Origin: a virus
Lineage: Duplodnaviria > Caudoviricetes
Strand: one strand, 5' to 3'
DNA: 64,000 nt
Virus record (IMG/VR): IMGVR_UViG_3300025875_000011
Coordinates: 1 to 64,000 of that record
Positions 18,725 through 58,471 of this stretch are shown here, in pieces. The position numbers and the translations under genes are program-made. Below the pieces are notes generated by a model. The model saw only the letters and a list, made by a program, of their open reading frames with translations, was not told the DNA's origin and ran no database searches. Position 1 is the first letter of the stretch. The number at the start of each line of letters is the position of its first letter.

Positions 18725-19149
18725 TGGACCTCTCCCGTGTCGGGGTCGACCCGGGGCTCGCGTCGGAGCATCACGATGTGGCGCTCGTAGATGTTCGTCG
18801 GCCGGGGGTCGCCGTCGATGAGGACGTGGAGCAGGCCGTCGGTGTCGGCCGCCCCGGAGTACACCGCGACCAGCTGCCCCGTGACCCACAGGCCGTTCGC
18901 GCCGGCGTCGAGCAGGATCCCCACCCGGTCTCCGACCGCCGCGACCTCCTCGACCTCCTCGACCTCGGTGGTGTCGTCCAGGCCCAAGTGGGCGAGGAGC
19001 TCGTCGGCGATCTTCTTGGCCCGGTCGGAGTCGAACACGCCCTGGTGCTCGGTCATCCTCGACCAGCACACCGAGGCCGCCCCAATGGCTTCCTGTACAG
19101 CGGTCCTCGGGGACTGATCGGTGAACCCCATCACTTCGTCTGGCTTCAC
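18721..19149 (-). CDS. Hypothetical protein
   Basis: GTG start overlapping the dpdA stop; EAIGAASVCW motif; GC3 bias. Confidence 0.6.
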   Translation of the reverse strand: MKPDEVMGFTDQSPRTAVQEAIGAASVCWSRMTEHQGVFDSDRAKKIADELLAHLGLDDTTEVEEVEEVAAVGDRVGILLDAGANGLWVTGQLVAVYSGAADTDGLLHVLIDGDPRPTNIYERHIVMLRREPRVDPDTGEVQ

Positions 19150-20042
19150 AGCCGGTGTCCTTCCAGGTAGGTCGTCTCGATCGCCTTCGACGCGAGACGG
19201 AACTGGCGGATCACGGTGTCCGCCACGTAGGAGTGGAGCCCGGGCCCGGACCGGTTGGTCTCGTCGCCCGGGATCATGATCGGACCATGACGCAGCCGGA
19301 GCCAATGCTCGGCCCGCTTGTGGGCGACCGCGGCCAGCATCACCGCGTACTGGCGCTCGTACTTTGCCGGGTCAAGGAAGATCAGCGGGTCTGCGCCGTG
19401 CTCACGGATCAGGGCCCGGTTGTCGATGATCGTCGAGTGGTCGCGGAGCGTGGCCGTCACCCACCGGCCGTTCTTGAACATCTTCAACTGCCCGTAGCGG
19501 AACCCCTGGCCCCACGACGACGAGTCCACCGAGTAGAACGGGAAGTCGCGCAGGGCCTGCCACACGTTCAGGCCGAACCCGTGGAACACCGCGCGGTCCC
19601 CCGCGATCCGGAACGCCTTCGCCAGCCACGGCTCGAGGATCTTCCACGAGTTCCCGAGCAGCTTGCCGAGCGCGATGTACGTGTGGCCGGCCTCGATGTA
19701 CTTCTCCAGCCACTCCCACGGCTCCCCGGTGTGGAACACGGGCAGGACCTTCAACCCGTGGACCTCCTCCAAGATCCGCTGGTTCCGCCAGGTGTTCGCC
19801 GGCGCGCCGATCACGTCGAGGTTCGACACCACGTCGAGGTGGCGTCCCCACCGCTTCACCCATGCCGCGTACTCGTCCACACGCAGATCCACACCCTGTG
19901 TACGAGCCGAGTGAGCGCCGGAGTCCGCGAAGACGAGCGGCTTCTGGCCGGTGACCGCGCCGACGACCTCGTCCATGTCGTGGTCCTTGAAGTACCAGTA
20001 CGAGCACAGCATCTTGAACCGGCCGTCGATCGGCACGCTCAC
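19146..20042 (-). CDS. dpdA: DNA 7-deazaguanine transglycosylase (TGT-like)
   Basis: FADSGAHS, NLDVIG, LPVFHTG, FHGFG and YSVDSSSW motifs; clustered with folE/queD/queE. Confidence 0.9.
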   Translation of the reverse strand: MSVPIDGRFKMLCSYWYFKDHDMDEVVGAVTGQKPLVFADSGAHSARTQGVDLRVDEYAAWVKRWGRHLDVVSNLDVIGAPANTWRNQRILEEVHGLKVLPVFHTGEPWEWLEKYIEAGHTYIALGKLLGNSWKILEPWLAKAFRIAGDRAVFHGFGLNVWQALRDFPFYSVDSSSWGQGFRYGQLKMFKNGRWVTATLRDHSTIIDNRALIREHGADPLIFLDPAKYERQYAVMLAAVAHKRAEHWLRLRHGPIMIPGDETNRSGPGLHSYVADTVIRQFRLASKAIETTYLEGHRL

Positions 20043-20236
20043 CGCGACGCCCCCAGGCACGGGTTCGGACCGTCCGCGGGGCACGGGACGGCGGCCGGGT
20101 GCGCGAGGTGGCCGTACTCGACGTCGGCCGACTGGCACCGGTAGAGCCCCGGGCGGCCTTCACGCGTCAGGTGGACCCACCCGTCGTGGCCGTCGGTGAT
20201 CACCCCGACGCCACAGTGGACGCACGAGTCAGCCAT
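20039..20236 (-). CDS. Small Cys/His-rich hypothetical protein
   Basis: 65 aa, CxxC, overlapping start/stop packing. Confidence 0.55.
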   Translation of the reverse strand: MADSCVHCGVGVITDGHDGWVHLTREGRPGLYRCQSADVEYGHLAHPAAVPCPADGPNPCLGASR

Positions 20237-22326: not shown

Positions 22327-22589
22327 GACTTCGGGGGGACCGCGATCGTCAGGTTCAGACCGATCGACCCTCCCTGGCCTCCGCTGATGTTGTCCCAGCC
22401 CATGACCGTGACGGTGGCCCCGATCTCGGTGGGGTGCTCACCGCTGTCCTCGACGATCTGAGACGCGGCGATGAGGCCGGCCTCCAGGAGTGCGAGGTGG
22501 GGCACGTCGAGCGTGCTCGTGTCCAGCTGCGTGGCTGCGTCGCGGACCGACTGACGCGGGGCGACGGTGAGCGTACGGGTGAAGGTCAT
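22323..22589 (-). CDS. Hypothetical protein (first gene of the leftward block)
   Basis: ATG 22589 with GGAGG SD; 88 aa. Confidence 0.6.
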   Translation of the reverse strand: MTFTRTLTVAPRQSVRDAATQLDTSTLDVPHLALLEAGLIAASQIVEDSGEHPTEIGATVTVMGWDNISGGQGGSIGLNLTIAVPPKS

Positions 22590-22639
22590 GCCTCCGGAGC
22601 GTAGGGGAACCCCCTGGTCAGGGCCACCTCCTGGCACAC

Positions 22640-22760
22640 AGAAACCGGAAAAACTCGTCCGCGACTGCGCGCGCTAAACCCAAGGTCGGGGTGCGCGGGT
22701 GCCCGGGGGGTCCCCCCCAGGGGGGCTGAGGGCGAGGGGCCGGGTGCGCGGGGCGAGGCG
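22640..22760. other. Probable genome-end / packaging (cos) region
   Basis: Non-coding, directly upstream of the terminase-containing block; G/C homopolymer dyads (gggggtccccccagggggg) and an A-tract GAAACCGGAAAAACTC; position inferred only. Confidence 0.3.
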
Positions 22761-22921
22761 GGGGCATGCGGGGCCAGGCGATGGGGAGGCGTGAGGAGGT
22801 GTGCCGCACAGGGGGAGGCGCGCAGGGGGCGACGTGTGACCACGCACAGGCATGAGGAGTTGATGATCTTGGTGTGTGTGGGCGTGTGTGTGCTCAGGCA
22901 TGAGTGAGGGGGACGCACATG

Positions 22922-23074
22922 CACCACGGGGAGGCATGAGCGGAGGGGGCGCAGGGCACAGGGATGAGCGGAGCGCACGCACATGCACCACCACCACCAC
23001 CACGGGGTGGGGGGCAGGCACCACGGGGGACGCACGCACCACGCACCACCACGGGGACGCGTCGCACCACGGGG
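22922..23074 (+). repeat. Five direct copies of CACCACGGGG
   Basis: Copies at 22922, 22998, 23019, 23047 and 23065, three followed by (G)ACGC. Confidence 0.8.
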
Positions 23075-23667
23075 ACGCACGCGCATGTGTGTGTGCGCGG
23101 TCGCAGGCGGGGGCGTGCTGGCCTCAGGGGGGGCGTGTGGCGTGAGGGACGCACATAGGAGCTCCGCTGGCAGGACCCCCGTGCAGGGTCGCGCAGGGGT
23201 ATGTCGACCAGGCCGCACAGGGGTAGGTGCGAAGGGGTAGGGGGCGAGCGCCAGGACCATGATCATTTGGGGCGCAGGGGTGGGTCTGGTCTCAGAGTGT
23301 GGGACGGATGATCATGGTTTCATCTCACCCCTTGGTACGGGAGGGGGTAGGGCCGGCACGAGTTTTCTGGACGTTCCTCCTAGTGGGAGCGTATTTCGGG
23401 GGGTCCGGCCAGATTGGTCTAGCGGGAAGGGTTGACAGGGGGGAGGGTGCGGACGCATGGTTTGACCAGTTCCACCGCAGCACCGCTCCACTTCTCCCCC
23501 CTCACGGGGGGAACGGGATCGGGTCAGTCTCGGTAGCGGACCCGGATCGTTGAAAACTTCACAGTGTGTTCCTCCTCCTGTCTCTCACAGGGGGAGCCGG
23601 TGACTTCGGTCCCCGGCTCCGCTTGTGTCCACTCGGAACCGTTCCGAGTGGCCTAACAGGAGGAACC

Positions 23668-33086: not shown

Positions 33087-33641
33087 CTATCCGGACGCAG
33101 CAGCGCGGAGTTTGGCCAGGGCCCGGTGGTGAGCGACCCGGACAGCGTTCTCCTTCATCCCGAGCCGCTCCCCCACCTCGCTGGCGCTCAGTCCGTGGGC
33201 TCGGAGCATCACGATCCGACCGGCCTGCTCGGGGAGCGCCGCGACGAGGACCAGCGCGGCGTCGAGATCTTGGCGGACTTCTAACAGCGCCTCCGGAGAC
33301 GGATCGTGGCTCGTCTGGTCGGGCAGCTGGTCGACGACGTGGAACGGGGTCCGCGAGTAGGCCCGTTGCGCGTCCCGGACCTTGTTCGAGGCGATCGCGT
33401 AGACGAACGCGCCGAACGGGGAGCCGCGGTCGTCCCAGTGGGGGAGCGCGGCTGCGACCGCGACGCACACCTCCTGGGTCACGTCCTCTGCCGCTTCTCC
33501 CCCGCCGGCGTACGTCGCCAGCCGGGTCCGGGCGTAGCGGTGGACGGCCCTCCTCACAGCGCCCAGCAGGTCGTCGAGGGCGGCGGTGTCTCCGTGTTGG
33601 GCGTCGTGGACGAGGGAGCCGTCGTCCATGCTGGCGGTCAT
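33087..33641 (-). CDS. ECF sigma factor, SigD/ShbA-like
   Basis: Region 2 (AAEDVTQEVCVAV...PFGAFVYAIASNKVRDAQR) and region 4 (LSASEVGERLGMKENAVRVAHHRALAKLR). Confidence 0.92.
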   Translation of the reverse strand: MTASMDDGSLVHDAQHGDTAALDDLLGAVRRAVHRYARTRLATYAGGGEAAEDVTQEVCVAVAAALPHWDDRGSPFGAFVYAIASNKVRDAQRAYSRTPFHVVDQLPDQTSHDPSPEALLEVRQDLDAALVLVAALPEQAGRIVMLRAHGLSASEVGERLGMKENAVRVAHHRALAKLRAAASG

Positions 33642-38947: not shown

Positions 38948-39249
38948 CGGCGGAACACCCGCATCACGGCAGCGACCAGGAGGAGGACCAGCCCGATGAG
39001 GCCGATGACACCTCCCGCGTTGGGGAGGCCCGCGGTGGCGAACTTTCCGCCGCCCATGAGCACCCCGACACCGGTCGCGGCGACCCAGGTGGAGCGCCGG
39101 TAGGTCTTCTTCGGCGGGGTGGCGGGGTCAGCGTCTCGCGCGTCCTGGGCCTGGAGGTCGCGGCCGCGGCGGGACACGGTGGACTCCCGGACGTGGACGG
39201 TCCTGCCGTTGACGGTGCGGACGTGAGCTCGCCGGGTGAAGGTGCTCAT
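38944..39249 (-). CDS. Small basic membrane protein
   Basis: Basic N-terminus (repeat RAHVRTVNGRTVHVRE) and two C-terminal TM helices; overlapped packing. Confidence 0.7.
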   Translation of the reverse strand: MSTFTRRAHVRTVNGRTVHVRESTVSRRGRDLQAQDARDADPATPPKKTYRRSTWVAATGVGVLMGGGKFATAGLPNAGGVIGLIGLVLLLVAAVMRVFRR

Positions 39250-41303
39250 TCGCTGTCTCCGAAGCCTGGGATGTGGGTGAGGTGGTCGCCGCCGACGAGG
39301 ACCGGTTCACGTCGGGGGACCGGCTTGCGCTTCCGGGTCCGCGGCTTGGCCTTCGGCTTCGGCTCTTCGACGACGTCGACGACCTCGCCCTCGAGCACGA
39401 CGGGAGCCGTCGCGTGGGGGTAGCCGCGGTACGCGTGGAGGATGTCGATGGGGGCCTGGTCCTCGAACAGGTCGGGCTCGACCGGCTCGGGCGTCTTGCG
39501 CTTCCGCTTCGGCAGATCGAGGGGGGTGATCTCCCCGTCGCGGTCGAACTTCGGGCCCCGGTAGGTGAGGCGGGTCAGGTGGGTGGCCCGGTTGTTCCCC
39601 GCGCCGGCGATGTTGAACATCGGCTGGAGGGCGTGGATCTCCTTCGACTCCCAGGCGAGCGCGGTCGGCTCGCCTGGGAAGACGCCCGACTCGGTCCAAC
39701 GGACGTGGGTGGCCCACCAGCGGCAGTCGACGTTGGAGCAGCCGGGGAACGGGCACCAGCCCTTCCACACGTCGTCGCGGCGGTGCTCGCCGTAGCGGCG
39801 GTCCCGCTTGTTCGTCTCCCCCGAGTAGATGTGGATGGCCCGTCCCTTCGGGGTGACGCCGAACGCGCGGTAGCCGTAGTGGGGACGCAGACCGTTGCGG
39901 AGTTCCCGGGCCAGGTCGCGGGTCATCATGTTCTCGGGCAGCTCGCCGGTCGTCATGAGGTGGCGGACGTGCTGCTTCCCGACGTCGGCGGTGCGGAACT
40001 TCATCCGCTCCCCCTCCTCGGTGACGTAGTAGCCGACGCCCCGCATCCCGAAAGGGATCTGGGAGCAGGGGACGCCTTCGTTCTCCCCGATTCCGAGGAC
40101 AGCCTTCGTGTCCTCAGCCGACGTCTGACGCATCGAGGCCCGCAGCTGGAAAGCCTTTCGGATACCGCCGATCTCCTGGACGGTGGCGACCTGGACGCTC
40201 ATCCACACAAAGTCGGCGGTGCTCCGACCCTGAGACATGTAGACGCCCATGTCGGTCTTCGCCATTCCGGCCTGGAATAGCGGGGCCACGTCGAGGCCTT
40301 CGTCGATGATCGTCAAGACGCCGGGAAAGTCGGGGTTAGGCCCGCCGATGTCGTTGAGGTCCATCGCCTCCTTTTCGGCCAGGATCTCTTGACGTTCGTG
40401 GAGTTCGGCGCGCATGGCCTTGAAGTGTTCGGTGGCCTCCTCCAGCGTGGTGAAGTAGCCGCGGATGCGGATGTTCCCGTGGCCGAAGGACTTGCCGACC
40501 CACCGCTGGAACCAGCGCAACTCGGTGCGCTTCGGGTCGACGATCCACACGTCGGTCGGCGTCTCGTCGCGGACGAGGTCGAACCACAGGTTCCAGGTGA
40601 ACTTGCTCTTACCGGCCCCCGACGCGGCACCGACGAGGATGTTGAAGCCGTACGGGACCTGGGCCACCTTCCCGTCGTTCTGCCAGCCGAAGGAGATCGA
40701 CGCCTTCCCCGACGGGGGGAGGTCGAGGATCGACCGGGTCGCCTCGAGCGGGCTCTTGTCCCAGAACGTCAACCACCCAGCGCCCTTCCCGGACGGGCTG
40801 ATCGAGATCTCCTCGCACTTCATCGTCCCGGGGAGGACGGTGACGGCGTCAGCGGAGATGCGGGCCATGTCGCCACCGAGCGAGCCGGGACTGACGTAGG
40901 CCCGGACCTGCCCGGTCGGCGTCAACTTCTTGCGGAGGAGCTTCGGCTCGACCCCGTTCCACGACACCTTCTGGCCGGCCGTGTAGATGGCCCACCGGGC
41001 GTCGATGTCGCCGAACTTCTTCCCGCTGGTCAGGAAGTTGAACGGAAGCCGCCACCACGGGACCTCAACGCCTTCGTCGACGAGCTCGGCGCGACGGTCG
41101 ATGATCTTCGTGACCACCAGCCACAGCAGGACGGCGGCGATGGTGAGGAGGACGACCTTCCCGCCGCTGAAGATGTCGCCGGTGAGGTCCCAGCACAGCC
41201 ACCAGTAGAGGCCGAGGACGGTCAGCGCGACCGGGGGTGGGAAGTCCATCCACCGACGGTTCGGCGTGCCGATCCAGTTCCACAGATCCTTCATGGCCTT
41301 CAC
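39246..41303 (-). CDS. Membrane-anchored FtsK/SpoIIIE (TraB-like) ATPase with C-terminal GIY-YIG-like domain
   Basis: Two N-terminal TMs; Walker A GAASGAGKS, VDPK, Walker B LTIIDEG, QGRS; C-terminal HYGYR...IYSGETN...R...H...E..EI....PMFN. Confidence 0.85.
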   Translation of the reverse strand: MKAMKDLWNWIGTPNRRWMDFPPPVALTVLGLYWWLCWDLTGDIFSGGKVVLLTIAAVLLWLVVTKIIDRRAELVDEGVEVPWWRLPFNFLTSGKKFGDIDARWAIYTAGQKVSWNGVEPKLLRKKLTPTGQVRAYVSPGSLGGDMARISADAVTVLPGTMKCEEISISPSGKGAGWLTFWDKSPLEATRSILDLPPSGKASISFGWQNDGKVAQVPYGFNILVGAASGAGKSKFTWNLWFDLVRDETPTDVWIVDPKRTELRWFQRWVGKSFGHGNIRIRGYFTTLEEATEHFKAMRAELHERQEILAEKEAMDLNDIGGPNPDFPGVLTIIDEGLDVAPLFQAGMAKTDMGVYMSQGRSTADFVWMSVQVATVQEIGGIRKAFQLRASMRQTSAEDTKAVLGIGENEGVPCSQIPFGMRGVGYYVTEEGERMKFRTADVGKQHVRHLMTTGELPENMMTRDLARELRNGLRPHYGYRAFGVTPKGRAIHIYSGETNKRDRRYGEHRRDDVWKGWCPFPGCSNVDCRWWATHVRWTESGVFPGEPTALAWESKEIHALQPMFNIAGAGNNRATHLTRLTYRGPKFDRDGEITPLDLPKRKRKTPEPVEPDLFEDQAPIDILHAYRGYPHATAPVVLEGEVVDVVEEPKPKAKPRTRKRKPVPRREPVLVGGDHLTHIPGFGDSE

Positions 41304-41386
41304 GGTGCGGGGGTCCTTCCGGGGGGTGGTGGTGGTAGACGAGGACGTCGGTACCCAGTGCAGGTACCGACGCCCTCAGGGGTGGC

Positions 41387-41617
41387 TCAGCCCTTCGACG
41401 GAGCCGAAGCGATGTCGAACGCCTTGTCGAACTTGTCGCCACCGCCGGAGAGGGAACCGGCGAGGACGCCGGCTCCCTGCTCACCGGTGTCGCGGACGGC
41501 GTTCGTCATGTTGGCCGCGGCCTGGACGTCTCGCATCTGCGCGATCCCTCCGATGGCGAACGACAGGATGATGAACGTGCCGAGGATCAGTCGGCTCAGG
41601 GATCCGCTCTTGAACAT
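41387..41617 (-). CDS. Small membrane/exported protein (pilin-like size)
   Basis: 76 aa, single N-terminal hydrophobic helix; first gene of the FtsK module. Confidence 0.65.
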   Translation of the reverse strand: MFKSGSLSRLILGTFIILSFAIGGIAQMRDVQAAANMTNAVRDTGEQGAGVLAGSLSGGGDKFDKAFDIASAPSKG

Positions 41618-41660
41618 GAGGTGGGTGCCTCTCGGATGGGGGTCGGGGGGAGCGGTTGGC

Positions 41661-41683
41661 CTGACCCCCCGGAAGGGGGTCAG
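41661..41683 (-). terminator. Hairpin ctgaccccc-cggaa-gggggtcag
   Basis: 9-bp stem between the long inverted repeat and the 41617 start; no clear U-tract. Confidence 0.45.
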
Positions 41684-41687
41684 TGCT

Positions 41688-42338
41688 TGGTCCTGCCGCA
41701 GGTCACACTCGCTGGACCGGGGAGTCCGTCACTCCCCCGACGGGGTGGGACGTCTCGGTGCTGGAGTCCTGCTGGACGAGGGGACAGGGGCCTCGCGTTC
41801 CTTCCCTTGGTGGTGGTGTCGGGGCGGGGGTTCGGACCCTCCCCTGGCTGAGCAGCCCTCAGGATAGCGTGAACCGGTTCCACGGTGGTAGGCGGCGGCC
41901 CAGCGGGGCCTACGCCTACCACTCCAGCTGCCCTATCCACCGGTCGGGAACGGGCTGCTGTTGACGCCTGCTTGACATGGCGAATAGGATCGGCGTCGCA
42001 CCACTCGCTCCGCTCCCCGCGCGGCGCCGGACCCCCCCACCTCGTCCGGCCAGGCCCCGCCTGCCGCCCTCCCCCAACCTGTTGCTCGGGCTGGCTGTCG
42101 AGGTACGGCTCAGGCCCCGCAGTGCCGCCTTCTCCCACCGTGGAACCGGTTCCCGCGATCCTGTCGGTCTGCCCAGCCCGGGTCGGGTCCTCTCCCCCGC
42201 CCCTCCCCCACCACCTCGGGAGAGGAACGCTCGTCCCCTGTCCCCGCGTCCGCAGGACTCCCGCACCTTGACGTCCCACCCCGGCAGGGGAGGGACACAG
42301 ACTCCCCTGGTCCCGCGAGGGTGTCTGCGGGGGGACCA
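41688..42338 (-). repeat. Long imperfect inverted repeat (arms ~41688-41896 and ~42124-42338); candidate structured ncRNA
   Basis: Manual alignment; perfect 18-bp core GAACCGGTTCCACGGTGG (41871-41888 vs 42135-42152) plus many 5-14 bp matched blocks. Confidence 0.8.
41961..41990 (+). promoter_or_regulatory. Sigma70-type promoter TTGACG-N18-TAGGAT inside the repeat loop
   Basis: Consensus-like -35/-10 hexamers in a non-coding region. Confidence 0.5.
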
Positions 42339-42596
42339 CGACCCTCCTCGCGGGGGTCGTCCCCTAGGGGGGTGTGGGGGGGACAGCAAAGCGCCCGCCC
42401 CCCTGGGTGGGGACGGGCGCTCGGGTTGCGTCAGCGGGGGGTGGGGGGCCAGGTGGTGACGGCCAGGACCTTCGGTGCGCAGTTCTCGCACGCGATGGGG
42501 TGGGCGATGAGAACGACCCCATCCCGTAGGACGGCCTGCCACCGGGCCGTCATGACCCACACGCTGGCCAGGGAGTAGCGGGTGGTCTTGACCTGG

Positions 42597-42869
42597 CTAC
42601 TCAGCATGGCTGGCTCGCCGTCGCGCTCCGGAGGATCGCTTCCCGGAGTCGCGGTGGCGCTGGTCGATCGCCGTCTCTCCCGTGGAGTGGCCCTTCCACC
42701 CGGAGAGGGCGTAGCCGGCCGCGGCTCCCCACTCCGGGTCGGGGACGATGTCCTGGCGGCCGTTGAGGGCAGCTGGGGTGTGCTCGGGACAGCGGGGTCC
42801 GGGCTGGTACATCCGGACCCCCTTCGTGGCCGCGCAGGACTTCGTCTGGAGCCAGTGTTCGCACATCAT
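42597..42869 (-). CDS. Small Cys/His hypothetical protein
   Basis: CEHW...C...RCPEHTPAA motif. Confidence 0.6.
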   Translation of the reverse strand: MMCEHWLQTKSCAATKGVRMYQPGPRCPEHTPAALNGRQDIVPDPEWGAAAGYALSGWKGHSTGETAIDQRHRDSGKRSSGARRRASHAE

Positions 42870-43285
42870 CCGACCACCTTGACAGGTCGGCCCGGGCAAC
42901 GCGCGAACAGCGTCACGCCCTCCCCCTCCCCCGTGGTGTCCTCCACGGGGAAGGACCGGTGGCCCTGGGGGAAGGGGTGGGAGCGGAGCCACGGCTTCTT
43001 CGGCCAGGTGGTGAAGCACTGGGGGCAGATCCACCACCCGACCGGGTCGAAGACGCGCTTGGTCGGGATCGGCCAGGAGCCGGACGACGACGCGCCGACC
43101 TGGGGGTGGTCGGTGACGAGGTGGACGGTGGCCCGGTCGGGACACCACGGGTCCCCGCACACCGGGGCAGGGTGGGGTTCGGGCCGGAACAGCCAGGCCT
43201 CGAGGATGCGGGCCAGGGGGTGGATCACAGGCCACCTCCGCGACAGTTCGCGGTACACGTCCCGCCGTCGAGGATGTCGCACCAC
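42866..43285 (-). CDS. Hypothetical zinc-binding protein (start uncertain)
   Basis: CxxxxC and CPQC motifs. Confidence 0.5.
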   Translation of the reverse strand: MVRHPRRRDVYRELSRRWPVIHPLARILEAWLFRPEPHPAPVCGDPWCPDRATVHLVTDHPQVGASSSGSWPIPTKRVFDPVGWWICPQCFTTWPKKPWLRSHPFPQGHRSFPVEDTTGEGEGVTLFARCPGRPVKVVG

Positions 43286-52084: not shown

Positions 52085-53490
52085 CAGTCCTTCACCACCG
52101 AGAGGTAGTCGCGGCTCGACTGGATCGGGGTGAGCCGTTCCGGCTGGGACAGGCGGGCGTACTCCCCGAACTTGATTAGGCTCCGGACTCCGGTCGGGCC
52201 GTTGCGCTGCTTGCCGAGGATGGCCTCGACGTCGTCGGACTTCTCCATCTTGCCGTTGATCTCGACCTCCTCCTCCCACAGCAGCCACACGTTGTCGGCG
52301 GTCTGCTCGAGGTCGCCGGACTCGCGCAGGTCCGACACCTGGGGGCGCTTGTCCTGTCGGCCCTCGGGGTTGCGGTTCAGCTGGGCGAGGACCAGGAGGT
52401 GGGTGTCGTACTGCTTGGCGAGGGCCTTCAACTCGACGATCACCTCCCCGATGTGCTGCTGGCGAGACAGTCGCGGGTTCACGGCCCGGACGAGGCCGAT
52501 GTAGTCGATCGCTACGATCCCGAGCCGGTTCCCGGCGCGGTGGGCGCGGCGGTGAGCGGCGACGATCGCGCTCTTGATGTCGAGGATGGTCTGGCCGCCG
52601 TCGTCGACGACGGTCAGGTAGTCGCGGTCGGCCCGCATCTTCGGCAGGGCCCGGTTGATCCGGTCCCAGTCCTTCGGTCCGAGCGCGTCGCCTCCGGTGA
52701 GGATCGAGGTGAGGTTGACCCCGGCCGTGTGGGCGAGGGTCCGCTGGGTGATCTCCTGTTCGGTCATCTCCAGGCTCACGATCAGCGCGTGCTGCTGGTG
52801 GCGGCGGACGAGGTCGGTGACCGCGTTCTCGGCGAACAGCGACTTCCCCGCGCCGGGGCGGCCGGCGACGATGGTCACCCCTCCGGGGGTCCAGCCGCGG
52901 AACAGGTTGTCGAAGTCGGACCAGGCCGTCGTCGGGACCCGCTGGTTGCCGTTCTGGGCGATGTCGACGACAGCCTCGAGCGCGGACGGCTTCACGTCGT
53001 TGGTCTCGCGGCGCTCCCGGATGCGGTCGAGCCACTCCTGGGTGGAGGCGAGGAGCCGCTCCGGGTCGGAGCCGGGGGTCCGTACGGCCTGGACCATCCG
53101 GAGCCCGACTTCCCCGCTCTGGCGCAGGAGGGAGCACTCGCGCAGCTTTCGGGCGTAGTGCTCGGCCTGGAACGAGAGGATGGTCGTGTCGCCGTTGAGG
53201 TCGGTCAGGAACACCGGCCCGTCGGGGAGCCGGTGGACGTGGCCGCCCATCCGGGCGATGAACATCGCCACCGAGGGGACCTCACCGTCCGCGTCGAGGT
53301 CGACGGCCAGCTGCCACAGGTAGCCGTGCATCGGGTTCGCGAAGTCGTGACGGTCGACCAGCCGCTTGAGCCGGGGGATGTCGTTGTAGCCCTGGAGGAC
53401 CGCGCCGACGACGGCCCGTTCCCACCACGCGTCTTCGGGGCCGTCGAGGGCGTCGACGGCCTCCACCTCGGTGCTCACCGTCTCGCTCAT
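52084..53490 (-). CDS. dnaB: DnaB-like replicative helicase
   Basis: AGRPGAGKS, SLEMT, IDYIGL, LAQLNR, RPQVSDLRESGDLEQTAD and KQRNGPTG motifs. Confidence 0.96.
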   Translation of the reverse strand: MSETVSTEVEAVDALDGPEDAWWERAVVGAVLQGYNDIPRLKRLVDRHDFANPMHGYLWQLAVDLDADGEVPSVAMFIARMGGHVHRLPDGPVFLTDLNGDTTILSFQAEHYARKLRECSLLRQSGEVGLRMVQAVRTPGSDPERLLASTQEWLDRIRERRETNDVKPSALEAVVDIAQNGNQRVPTTAWSDFDNLFRGWTPGGVTIVAGRPGAGKSLFAENAVTDLVRRHQQHALIVSLEMTEQEITQRTLAHTAGVNLTSILTGGDALGPKDWDRINRALPKMRADRDYLTVVDDGGQTILDIKSAIVAAHRRAHRAGNRLGIVAIDYIGLVRAVNPRLSRQQHIGEVIVELKALAKQYDTHLLVLAQLNRNPEGRQDKRPQVSDLRESGDLEQTADNVWLLWEEEVEINGKMEKSDDVEAILGKQRNGPTGVRSLIKFGEYARLSQPERLTPIQSSRDYLSVVKD

Positions 53491-56741: not shown

Positions 56742-57187
56742 GACGGCTCCAGGGCGTCGGGGTGGGTCTCCGCGAACGCGGGGTGCTGGCCCTTGATGTG
56801 GTTGCGGACGTTCTCGAACGACCGCTGGCAGCACGGACACACCCCGTTGGAGATCCGGTTCCGGAGTCGCGTCAGGTGACCCCGGACGGCGGCCGCGGAC
56901 CGACGCTCGTGCGCGGCGCGCTCCCGGTGGAACTGCTCGTTCTCCCGCGCCGTCTTGGCCTGCGCGCGGAGCCGCTCGTTCTGGAACCGCAGATTCTCGG
57001 CCTCGGTCTCGTGGTCGTAGACATTCGAGTGGCCGTTCGGGCAGTAGAACGTCCCGTGGTCCTCCCGGCGGCGGCGCTCGAAGTCCTGGCCGATCCCGAA
57101 GTCGATCCCGCACCCAGCGCACTGGATGATGTCGATCGCCTTCTCGACGTAGACAGTGCGGGTCTGGGCTGTGATGGTGATGCTCAT
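56738..57187 (-). CDS. Zinc-binding coiled-coil phage protein
   Basis: CAGCG...FYCPNGH...coiled coil...CPCCQRSF...H...H. Confidence 0.75.
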   Translation of the reverse strand: MSITITAQTRTVYVEKAIDIIQCAGCGIDFGIGQDFERRRREDHGTFYCPNGHSNVYDHETEAENLRFQNERLRAQAKTARENEQFHRERAAHERRSAAAVRGHLTRLRNRISNGVCPCCQRSFENVRNHIKGQHPAFAETHPDALEPS

Positions 57188-57453
57188 CGAGGTTCCTCCT
57201 GGTTGATGTCGGGGTCGTCGCCTTCCTGGATGAAGCGGACCCCGCGCAAAATGTGGGTGAACAGGGCCGCGAAGATCACCAAGGCCAGCAGGTACTCGAG
57301 GCGGTCGAACCACGGCCGGTCCTGGTGGAAGACGTTGCCGACCCACCCGACAGCGAGACCGAGTGGCACCCCCCACAGCACGAGACGACGCCGGCGCTCG
57401 GCGTCCTCGACGTCGCGGTAGACAGCGGTCGCCCAGTAGCGGCGCTCGCTCAC
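57184..57453 (-). CDS. Two-TM membrane protein
   Basis: Two hydrophobic helices. Confidence 0.65.
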   Translation of the reverse strand: MSERRYWATAVYRDVEDAERRRRLVLWGVPLGLAVGWVGNVFHQDRPWFDRLEYLLALVIFAALFTHILRGVRFIQEGDDPDINQEEPR

Positions 57454-57755: not shown

Positions 57756-58471
57756 GCTCCGATCTCCTTCACGCCGACGAGCTTGGCGAACTGGGACACC
57801 TGGTCGAGGATCAGGCCAGCGGTCTCGGCCTTCTTCTCCTTGTCGAACCGGCCGGACCACGTCACCTTCTTCGGGACGGCGGTGGCCCACGGCCACTCCT
57901 CCCCCGTCTCGGAGTCGACGACGACGAGGCGAGACGACCGGTCACGGTCCGGATGCGTCTCATCCGGCCCCGGCTCCTCCCAGGTGACGATCTTGGCCCG
58001 CTCGGTGAGGTACGGGATCACCCACTCGGCGATCTTCTCCGGGACCGTCCGGGGAGGGAACGCAGCCCGGAGCGCAGCGAGAGCGATGGTCCTGGCAAAC
58101 ACCTTCTCGAACACGGGGGAAGACACCGACTCCACGGCGGTCACCGCGCGGCGCAGCTGGTGCTCGTCGAACGTGTCCTCGTCGTGCTCGGGGACGACCG
58201 ACAGCACCTCCTCGCGGCCCTCGCGCGGGTCGTAGGGGAGGTTCTCCACCAGCCACGCGCGGAGGTCGGCCGACGACAGGATGTCGACGTGGGCCTCGCT
58301 GGTGGAGGTGTAGACCTTCCCGAACGGCGTGGTGAAGGTGCTCGTCCCGGTGGCCTCAGCGGTCGGGACGACGTTCTCCTCTAGGACCACGTCGGCCGCG
58401 GCCTTTGCGGCGTCAGCGATCACGCGGAGCGCGGCGTACGCGTCAGCGGGACGCACCGTCAGCGCGGTCAC
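57752..58471 (-). CDS. Hypothetical protein in recombination module
   Basis: 239 aa, downstream of the Rad52-like gene. Confidence 0.7.
   Translation of the reverse strand: MTALTVRPADAYAALRVIADAAKAAADVVLEENVVPTAEATGTSTFTTPFGKVYTSTSEAHVDILSSADLRAWLVENLPYDPREGREEVLSVVPEHDEDTFDEHQLRRAVTAVESVSSPVFEKVFARTIALAALRAAFPPRTVPEKIAEWVIPYLTERAKIVTWEEPGPDETHPDRDRSSRLVVVDSETGEEWPWATAVPKKVTWSGRFDKEKKAETAGLILDQVSQFAKLVGVKEIGA

Follow-up and report, generated by a model that had tools for sequence, protein, structure and literature searches.

Upstream of an FtsK-like operon in an uncultivated tailed phage (actinophage) of a high-GC host, the 64,000-nt stretch of DNA analysed here (the window, positions 1 to 64,000 of IMG/VR record IMGVR_UViG_3300025875_000011) contains a long imperfect inverted repeat, spanning 41663-42358. 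Our preferred reading, held tentatively, is that the repeat arose as a lineage-specific fold-back duplication and serves in cis as a structured leader RNA transcribed from the minus strand; a decaying DNA relic is nearly as likely. The non-random feature of the repeat is the orientation and type of the mismatches between its two arms, which are mostly transversions and which, on the minus strand (that of the operon), mostly oppose two purines.

The inverted repeat

In the complete record (76,216 bp, 69.5% G+C, estimated 91% complete), all called genes from ∼59.5 kb down to 33 kb lie on the minus strand, and the repeat occupies the one large gap (810 bp) within this gene block. The gap is non-coding: in a frame plot of G+C content at third codon positions (GC3, also used to call the genes), values over 41620-42430 are flat at 0.70-0.78, while real genes in this genome exceed 0.85, and a Pfam search of all open reading frames in the gap gave 0 matches. 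A coding role was considered and rejected, as GC3 periodicity is absent and the 219-codon open reading frame spanning the repeat would encode a low-complexity product.

A formal local alignment pairs 41663-41928 with the reverse complement of 42094-42358, giving 213 matches, 46 substitutions and 13 gap columns. The arms are ∼265 nt long and 82% identical over ungapped columns (18% diverged), with the indels falling in ∼9 events. Arm 1 (41663-41928), delimited by alignment, repeat finder and composition, is G-rich on the plus strand and forms the C-rich 3' arm on the minus strand (C/G 1.16, purine fraction 0.50). Arm 2 (42094-42358) forms the G-rich and purine-rich 5' arm on the minus strand (purine fraction 0.58, C/G 0.71), and the 165-nt loop between them (41929-42093) has a purine fraction of 0.61 on that strand. 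The initial annotation, made from the sequence without database searches, had described an imperfect inverted repeat with ∼210-bp arms; the repeat is real, but its arms are longer, and the coordinates given for it correspond to a self-BLAST hit (41688-42338). The flanking hairpins that it listed are present, at 41661-41683, 42340-42358 and 42390-42421. The first two are small basal hairpins seen in sequence and fold. One sits on the outer edge of arm 1 and leaves 45 nt to the start codon of the downstream small gene; the other sits on the outer edge of arm 2, and 41663-41681 is its partner in the repeat.

The longest perfect block between the arms is 18 nt (41871-41888, partner 42135-42152). 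It contains a 10-bp palindrome, GAACCGGTTC, which is found in each arm beside the loop, while the full 12-bp form, GGAACCGGTTCC, occurs in arm 2 only. An operator family based on the latter was considered, and no such site family exists elsewhere in the genome. Motifs resembling ECF-type promoters (GGAAC-N18-CGTC) face outward in both arms, at 41775-41801 (minus strand) and 42224-42250 (plus strand), with their hexamer-like ends kept between arms and their spacer variable. The pattern occurs 29 times in the genome, too common to be significant, and was set aside as evidence.

A chance origin of the repeat is excluded by its self-complement alignment score (431, compared with 32 ± 5 in shuffled sequences) and by folding z-scores far beyond those of shuffled sequences. 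For RNA, z is -18 for the minus and -14 for the plus strand, and for DNA -26 and -19, respectively. The minus-strand fold is better than the plus-strand fold by 20-35 kcal/mol in both RNA and DNA models. Self-BLAST and a repeat search identify this as the only long inverted repeat of the genome, present in a single copy. An assembly fold-back artefact is also excluded, as the arms have diverged and lie within the contig, and as an independent ENA assembly (L167; 77,996 bp; ERZ27293403) is identical over 6.3 kb around the repeat, with 100% identity across the region.

Mismatch identities and substitution spectrum

The 46 arm-to-arm substitutions in the formal alignment comprise 38 transversions and 8 transitions, and in the core of the repeat (41740-41888) the figures are 23 and 1. 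The transversion bias that had been seen in a manual alignment thus holds, and the formal alignment has no ordinary transition bias. By class, the substitutions are 27 A:T↔C:G, 7 A↔T, 4 G↔C and 8 transitions. In the mutation-accumulation spectrum of wild-type Mycolicibacterium smegmatis, 62% of changes are transitions and the same transversion classes stand at 18:2:3 (PMC7015689). Relative to this actinobacterial spectrum, transitions between the arms are ∼8-fold depleted (8/46 compared with 62% expected, p = 5e-10). The transversion split (27:7:4 compared with 18:2:3) shows no significant difference (p = 0.10), so that the distortion lies in which changes are kept. Removing the directional excess still leaves too few transitions (8/26, p = 0.001).

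Read as a minus-strand helix, the mismatches comprise 29 purine-purine oppositions (22 of them G.A), 9 pyrimidine-pyrimidine oppositions, 5 G.U and 3 A.C. The excess of purine-purine over pyrimidine-pyrimidine mismatches, proposed earlier for the core, is confirmed there (21 compared with 2, p = 7e-5) and extends to the whole repeat (29 compared with 9, p = 0.0017). The accompanying proposal that transitions become G.U wobbles on this strand applies to five of the eight, the other three being A.C. The tandem G.A/A.G mismatches are all of the 5'-GA-3'/3'-AG-5' type on the minus strand (5/5, with none of the opposite type; p = 0.06), and on the plus strand these sites read 5'-TC-3' in both arms at matching places. 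Under the Turner rules, the 5'-GA/3'-AG tandem is the stable sheared form.

The contribution of mismatch identity to stability was assessed in 300 simulations, in which the 46 substitution positions were kept fixed and their identities drawn at random. The real plus-strand hairpin is weaker than 300 of the 300 simulated hairpins; the minus-strand result is given below, with the points that weigh against a leader RNA.

Relatives of the module and purine skew of the spacer

The FtsK/SpoIIIE-like protein encoded downstream of the repeat (685 aa, 39246-41303, minus strand; PHROG 1358, E = 2e-9) served as the anchor for finding relatives. These are few (69%, 69%, 56% and ∼40% identity or lower), and only two have a complete upstream spacer. 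G001 (the same as locus L004) is a 68.6-kb phage with terminal repeats, whose similarity to the present phage is confined to the small gene, the FtsK-like gene and the beginning of the transglycosylase gene; in the other, L018, the spacer is 508 bp long. DNA similarity to G001 extends only to 41623 and stops 40 nt short of the repeat. Given this stop and the repeat-free spacers of G001 and L018, the repeat is, as far as the sequences go, lineage-specific and placed at a mosaic boundary. Homology of the arms to the spacers of G001/L004 and L018 was considered and rejected (z below 2).

Most other relatives' contigs break off here: those of nine (L015, L016, L017, L168, L169, L170 and L172-L174), including contigs of 9 kb and 20 kb, start ∼50-400 nt upstream of the module, suggesting either systematic difficulty in assembling this region or the end of a genome. 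Contigs that break at this place say nothing about repeats. G001 has a 68%-identical inverted pair (52694-52919 and 57901-58135) flanking its FtsK-like module; this was rejected as a structural repeat, since the similarity is between coding sequences: the divergent gene and the large lytic protein each contain one of two paralogous endonuclease/exonuclease/phosphatase domains.

The spacers upstream of the module have in common a purine-skewed, G-run-rich tract on the sense strand of the module, located at 57051-57400 in G001 (about 5100-5450 in L004), 7126-7500 in L018 and 41951-42300 in the window. Among 300-nt windows of G001, the module spacer is the purine-skew maximum (0.67 on the module's sense strand, ∼5 standard deviations), and it is also the maximum of the L018 locus (0.62, sense strand). 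In the present genome, the spacer at 41951-42275 ranks second (0.63, sense strand). These figures argue for a strand-specific pressure on the spacer's sense strand, for which action at the level of RNA is the simplest explanation. Because both arms of an inverted repeat cannot be purine-rich on one strand, purine pressure acting on both would turn complementary positions into purine-purine mismatches on the minus strand. The purine pressure shared with the repeat-free relatives can by itself account for the overall strand asymmetry of the mismatches, although not for that of the core.

The loop, its promoter-like site and the upstream hairpin

Part of the loop (41972-42031) aligns to positions 33-93 of the spacer of L169 with a score of 17, compared with 11.3 ± 1.3 in shuffled sequences, of which 0/200 reach 17. 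By this alignment, the two segments are homologous. In the L169 DNA covered by the contig, the inverted repeat is not seen. The loop also contains a predicted sigma-70-like promoter on the plus strand (TTGACG-18-TAGGAT, 41961-41990), which points into arm 2 and away from the FtsK-like operon. This is the only sigma-70-like match in 41200-42900 (0.0 expected in shuffled sequences) and one of five in the 76-kb genome. The loop and L169 have in common TTGACA and TAGGAT, 7 nt apart on the plus strand, while the upstream TTGACG is not conserved. The promoter core of L169 has the same orientation relative to the module as in the present phage, and L004 and L018 have a weaker aligned TANNNT on the same strand, without the repeat. 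On the far side of the corresponding spacer, L004 and L018 encode a divergent gene, and none is present at the far side of the promoter in the window. The RNA predicted from the loop promoter is no more structured than shuffled sequence (z = 0.0).

At the other end of the gap, a strong GC hairpin of 13-14 bp (42390-42421), followed on the minus strand by TTTGCTGT, starts 10 nt past the stop codon of the 58-aa gene upstream. It resembles a terminator, yet lacks a full U tract, and a consensus scan of 41200-42900 called no terminator.

A proposed structured leader RNA and its alternatives

In the reading we prefer, the repeat would be a single-copy fold-back duplication in the untranslated spacer before an operon for a small membrane protein, the FtsK-like protein and an SLT-domain lytic transglycosylase, and it would bracket a spacer core that is also present in relatives. 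Transcription from the upstream gene block would read through the 810-nt gap on the minus strand. Such read-through is the simplest source of module transcription, as 41560-42480 contains no minus-strand sigma-70-like promoter. In the resulting transcript, the G-rich 5' arm (42358 to 42094) and the C-rich 3' arm (41928 to 41663) would anneal into a rod of ∼265 bp that is interrupted every 1-18 bp and stops 45 nt short of the small gene's ribosome-binding site. The benefit would be that the only C-rich, pyrimidine-rich stretch of the leader stays double-stranded and that the unpaired positions are purines, which would leave little single-stranded C-rich RNA for Rho or nucleases; the relatives would reach the same end through a purine-rich leader with no repeat. 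Transitions would be compensated via G.U intermediates, and so be lost from the arm-to-arm comparison, while transversions would survive chiefly as stackable purine-purine pairs, including the sheared GA tandems.

We infer the minus-strand read-through, the formation of the rod in vivo and its protective role. We suggest that the constraint on the spacer is avoidance of single-stranded C-rich untranslated RNA, which is a Rho substrate, and the persistence of an 18%-diverged, 265-bp repeat in a compact phage genome suggests that it is not free to be deleted. Selection on a minus-strand helix explains this persistence, the shortage of transitions and the orientation of the transversions by one cause. 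The initial annotation had likewise pointed to a minus-strand RNA folding into a long rod. In support of that proposal, the repeat lies in a non-coding gap of a minus-strand gene run, and both the mismatch identities and the fold favour the minus strand; on the other side stand the lack of a minus-strand promoter, the terminator-like hairpin upstream, an ordinary hairpin stability and a purine skew that reproduces the overall asymmetry.

Several results weigh against a leader RNA under selection. The repeat is absent from the G001 and L018 spacers, whose best self-complement scores are under the shuffle means. A blastn search for homologues of the arms in phages and plasmids found none, and an 18-mer scan of IMG/VR for the repeat core gave no homologue. 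The repeat is an orphan, and relatives with the module do without it; with no homologue of the arms found in phage, plasmid, viral, metagenome or genome collections, there is no set of homologues in which covariation could show. The minus-strand hairpin is ordinary in the simulations described above (-453.9 kcal/mol compared with -455.8 ± 8 with random mismatch identities), and when whole mismatch loops are swapped randomly between the arms, the difference in energy between strands is not significant (p ∼0.12, two-sided), so that these thermodynamic models give no sign of a special stabilisation of the minus-strand rod. The overall ratio of 29/38 fits purine pressure alone (equilibrium purine share 0.65, p = 0.10), and counting the asymmetry per loop instead of per base gives 17 compared with 7 (p = 0.06). 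The five G.U pairs are fewer than expected at any moment for a helix under simple purifying selection. In addition, the terminator-like hairpin lies directly upstream, and the loop promoter fires against the proposed read-through.

Much of this is what would be expected of a relic, that is, an inverted duplication formed by template switching or snap-back at the mosaic junction and now decaying, with functionless pairing. On this account, which we rate close to the leader RNA in probability although also short of an even chance, the orientation of the mismatches comes from the purine pressure on the spacer, and the shortage of transitions reflects how phage or host DNA is repaired or mutates, NucS being one example. 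NucS removes transition mismatches almost exclusively, with a ∼65-fold effect on transitions and a <2-fold effect on transversions (PMC7015689). The stop of G001 homology 40 nt from the repeat marks a module boundary, the purine skew that suffices for 29/38 was measured in G001 and L018, which lack the repeat, and the unremarkable minus-strand stability, the ordinary transversion sub-spectrum and the ∼9 indel events all agree with decay. Against a relic, two separate ad hoc causes are needed, the core ratio of 21 purine-purine mismatches out of 23 exceeds what the purine skew of the relatives predicts (p = 0.004), transitions remain short after the directional correction, and the tandem mismatches are 5/5 of the sheared GA type. 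A useless, recombination-prone repeat of 265 bp should moreover vanish before reaching 18% divergence.

The remaining alternatives are all less probable. A viroid-like rod RNA of ∼700 nt, its helix broken by purine-purine pairs (five tandem sheared G.A pairs among them) that are selected and do not reflect decay, is unlikely; it would serve as a new type of shield in cis, carrying transcription and mRNA past Rho and nucleases over the long untranslated gap, or as a decoy in trans for a host nuclease or sensor. A DNA-level element (a cruciform or protein-binding site, an invertible 165-bp promoter loop, or a replication origin) is quite unlikely: the only sigma-70-like promoter of the region does lie between the arms and faces no gene, such that flipping would direct it towards an operon without its own promoter, and GAACCGGTTC does lie beside the loop in each arm, but the record encodes no serine or tyrosine recombinase, and arms of 82% identity with a longest perfect run of 18 bp are a poor substrate for homologous recombination. 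The promoter core of L169 keeps the same orientation, and the weaker TANNNT of L004 and L018 is on that strand without any repeat; iterons, an AT-rich unwinding region and a GC-skew turn are absent at 42 kb, five CACCACGGGG repeats being found instead at 22922-23075; and a role at the DNA level predicts no strand-specific mismatch identities. At best as probable is a plus-strand RNA of ∼430 nt, running from ∼41997 through arm 2 to the hairpins at 42340-42421, to which the repeat would be incidental. As an antisense RNA to both the 5' arm and the upstream operon's 3' end, it would control read-through into the FtsK-like/sigma-factor module by transcriptional interference or antisense action. 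Its promoter is strong by consensus and shared with L169, a divergent gene lies beyond the corresponding spacer in L004 and L018, and downstream of the promoter the plus strand has a pyrimidine-rich tract that corresponds to the skewed one in the relatives. Yet no gene follows the promoter in the window, the predicted RNA has a structure z-score of 0.0, and arm 1 and the mismatch pattern are left unexplained; the conserved TTGACA and TAGGAT are only 7 nt apart, the promoter call resting on the non-conserved TTGACG. Least credible is a free-standing rod-like non-coding RNA or single-stranded DNA with a function in trans, as a decoy resembling double-stranded RNA, a small-RNA precursor or a single-strand initiation signal. 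The minus-strand mismatch orientation, the tandem GA pairs and the very low folding energy would suit it, but the minus strand has no promoter and no clear terminator, no Rfam family or reverse transcriptase was found, the source is a double-stranded DNA tailed phage with a DnaB-type helicase, and relatives with the same module have nothing comparable. The decoy and single-stranded DNA origin options offered by the initial annotation find no support: the record lacks both a relaxase-type context and a reverse transcriptase, and 22.9-23.1 kb offers a better origin candidate.

Searches for homologues and known element classes

A looser pattern of the repeat core returned >100 loci in metagenome contigs, all of which proved to be chance matches by BLAST, and the 18-mer core in 185,579 species genomes returned 26 loci, which are seed-length chance matches only. 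No Rfam 15 covariance model reaches its gathering score. The nearest, Guanidine-II (mini-ykkC) at 42353-42405 on the minus strand (25.1 bits compared with a gathering score of 32), lies outside the arms, includes a GGGG-ACGA-CCCC hairpin and is probably a chance match; all other matches are far below their thresholds.

As in invertons, inverted repeats flank a predicted promoter. Resolvase (PF00239) and Phage_integrase (PF00589) domains are absent from the 76-kb record, and the orientation of the loop is identical in the two assemblies. For a miniature inverted-repeat transposable element or other foldback mobile element, the repeat is single-copy here and absent from G001, and its flanks (41660-41662 and 42359-42361) share no direct repeat that could be a target-site duplication. 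A search of the record for the reverse transcriptase domain RVT_1, as expected for a retron, gave no match. Features of an origin are also lacking at the repeat, with no array of directly repeated 8-mers, a GC content of 0.70-0.78 throughout and no turn in cumulative GC skew at 42 kb. In a comparison with the Streptomyces plasmid clt locus (TraB recognition), where direct copies of an 8-bp motif cluster beside an FtsK-like translocase gene, no 8-mer occurs >3 times on one strand, and the element is upstream of the FtsK-like gene, inverted and carried by a tailed phage.

Gene neighbourhood and other features of the genome

On the minus strand, the gene order is 58-aa gene, GC hairpin, repeat, 76-aa gene, FtsK-like gene, and genes for a 101-aa and a 745-aa protein. 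The 58-aa gene (42431-42607, minus strand), called by GC3 and translation, is the last of the upstream block and belongs to no known family. The 76-aa protein (41387-41617, minus strand), with an N-terminal hydrophobic helix, is the product of the first gene downstream of the repeat, which is the leader gene of the module and is kept in relatives. The 745-aa protein has weak matches, under Pfam gathering scores, to lytic transglycosylase (SLT) and endonuclease/exonuclease/phosphatase (EEP) domains. Further down the same strand, a sigma factor gene (33087-33641) lies at the far end of the block that the FtsK-like module starts. Relatives of the PLD-like gene on the right flank were also sought, and none was found.

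Elsewhere in the genome, PHROG matches identify structural proteins (tape measure protein, major head protein, portal and large terminase) together with a DnaB-like helicase, a ParB-like protein, an Erf-like annealing protein, an endolysin and the sigma factor. A queuine tRNA-ribosyltransferase-like (DpdA-type) protein (PHROG 887) is encoded at 19146-20138, which suggests 7-deazaguanine DNA modification in this phage.

A 12-15-bp GC hairpin separates the small gene from the FtsK-like gene in five phages (41341-41377 in the window, 5920-5953 in L004, 7925-7958 in L018, 2-32 in L017 and 399-434 in L168). Its position and structure are kept, while its sequence is different in each, and it may serve for attenuation or processing.

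A second large non-coding spacer (∼1.2 kb, 22330-23570) separates the structural block on the minus strand from genes on the plus strand, and is the purine-richest stretch of the genome on the plus strand (0.67). Within it are CACCACGGGG(A), in five direct copies at 22922-23075, and several AGGCATGAG repeats. The motif GAGCGTA, which the FtsK-module spacers of L004 and L018 also have, occurs in it three times. This spacer is a candidate origin or regulatory region.

Significance and comparison with known systems

Should the rod both form and be of consequence, no longer cis-acting RNA helix would have been described in a phage operon, and it would provide a natural case in which the identity of mismatches (purine-purine, sheared GA) is under selection instead of simply being tolerated. 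It would also link two modes of leader protection in high-GC phages, namely purine loading in the relatives and sequestering of a C-rich segment here. If the repeat is a relic, it would illustrate how a local compositional pressure, measurable in repeat-free relatives, can produce transversion-rich, strand-biased mismatches; such a pattern by itself is therefore no proof of selection for structure. In either case, the purine-skewed spacer before the FtsK-like module is a putative conserved regulatory region in this phage group.

The element is best filed with known kinds, as a structured phage leader or a fold-back duplication, in which the mismatch anatomy is unusual. The RNase III hairpins of the T7 group (R0.3, R1.1) and other intercistronic hairpins of phage mRNAs resemble it in being imperfect, located on the gene strand in untranslated gaps and interrupted by internal loops, and they act in cis on what lies downstream. 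These hairpins are 20-30 bp, repeated along the genome and conserved among relatives, whereas the repeat described here is ∼10 times longer, single-copy and orphan, with purine-purine interruptions. Bacterial fold-back and tandem-inversion duplications, formed by template switching at short quasi-palindromes, likewise have an adjacent inverted copy, a short unique spacer and a rearrangement junction. Fresh duplications of this kind have identical arms, in contrast to the 18% divergence and non-random spectrum seen here, which imply long retention.

Other systems share individual features. Invertible promoters (fimS and the Hin/Gin/Cin type) also bracket a promoter segment with inverted repeats upstream of an operon that lacks its own promoter, but known invertons use repeats of 9-30 bp and a dedicated recombinase, while here there is no recombinase and the promoter is oriented as in the repeat-free relatives. 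The single-strand promoters and initiation signals of conjugative plasmids (Frpo, ssi) and the single-strand origins of rolling-circle replicons are long imperfect hairpins that are strand-dependent and have functional mismatches; they act on transferred or displaced single-stranded DNA and have a promoter in the stem, whereas the present element belongs to a double-stranded DNA tailed phage without relaxase or Rep and has its promoter-like site in the loop. The rods of viroids and hepatitis delta virus also have helices of several hundred nt, small symmetric loops and some purine-purine pairs; these RNAs are circular and replicating, with ribozymes in some families, while here nothing of the sort is detectable and the element sits within the operon of a DNA phage.

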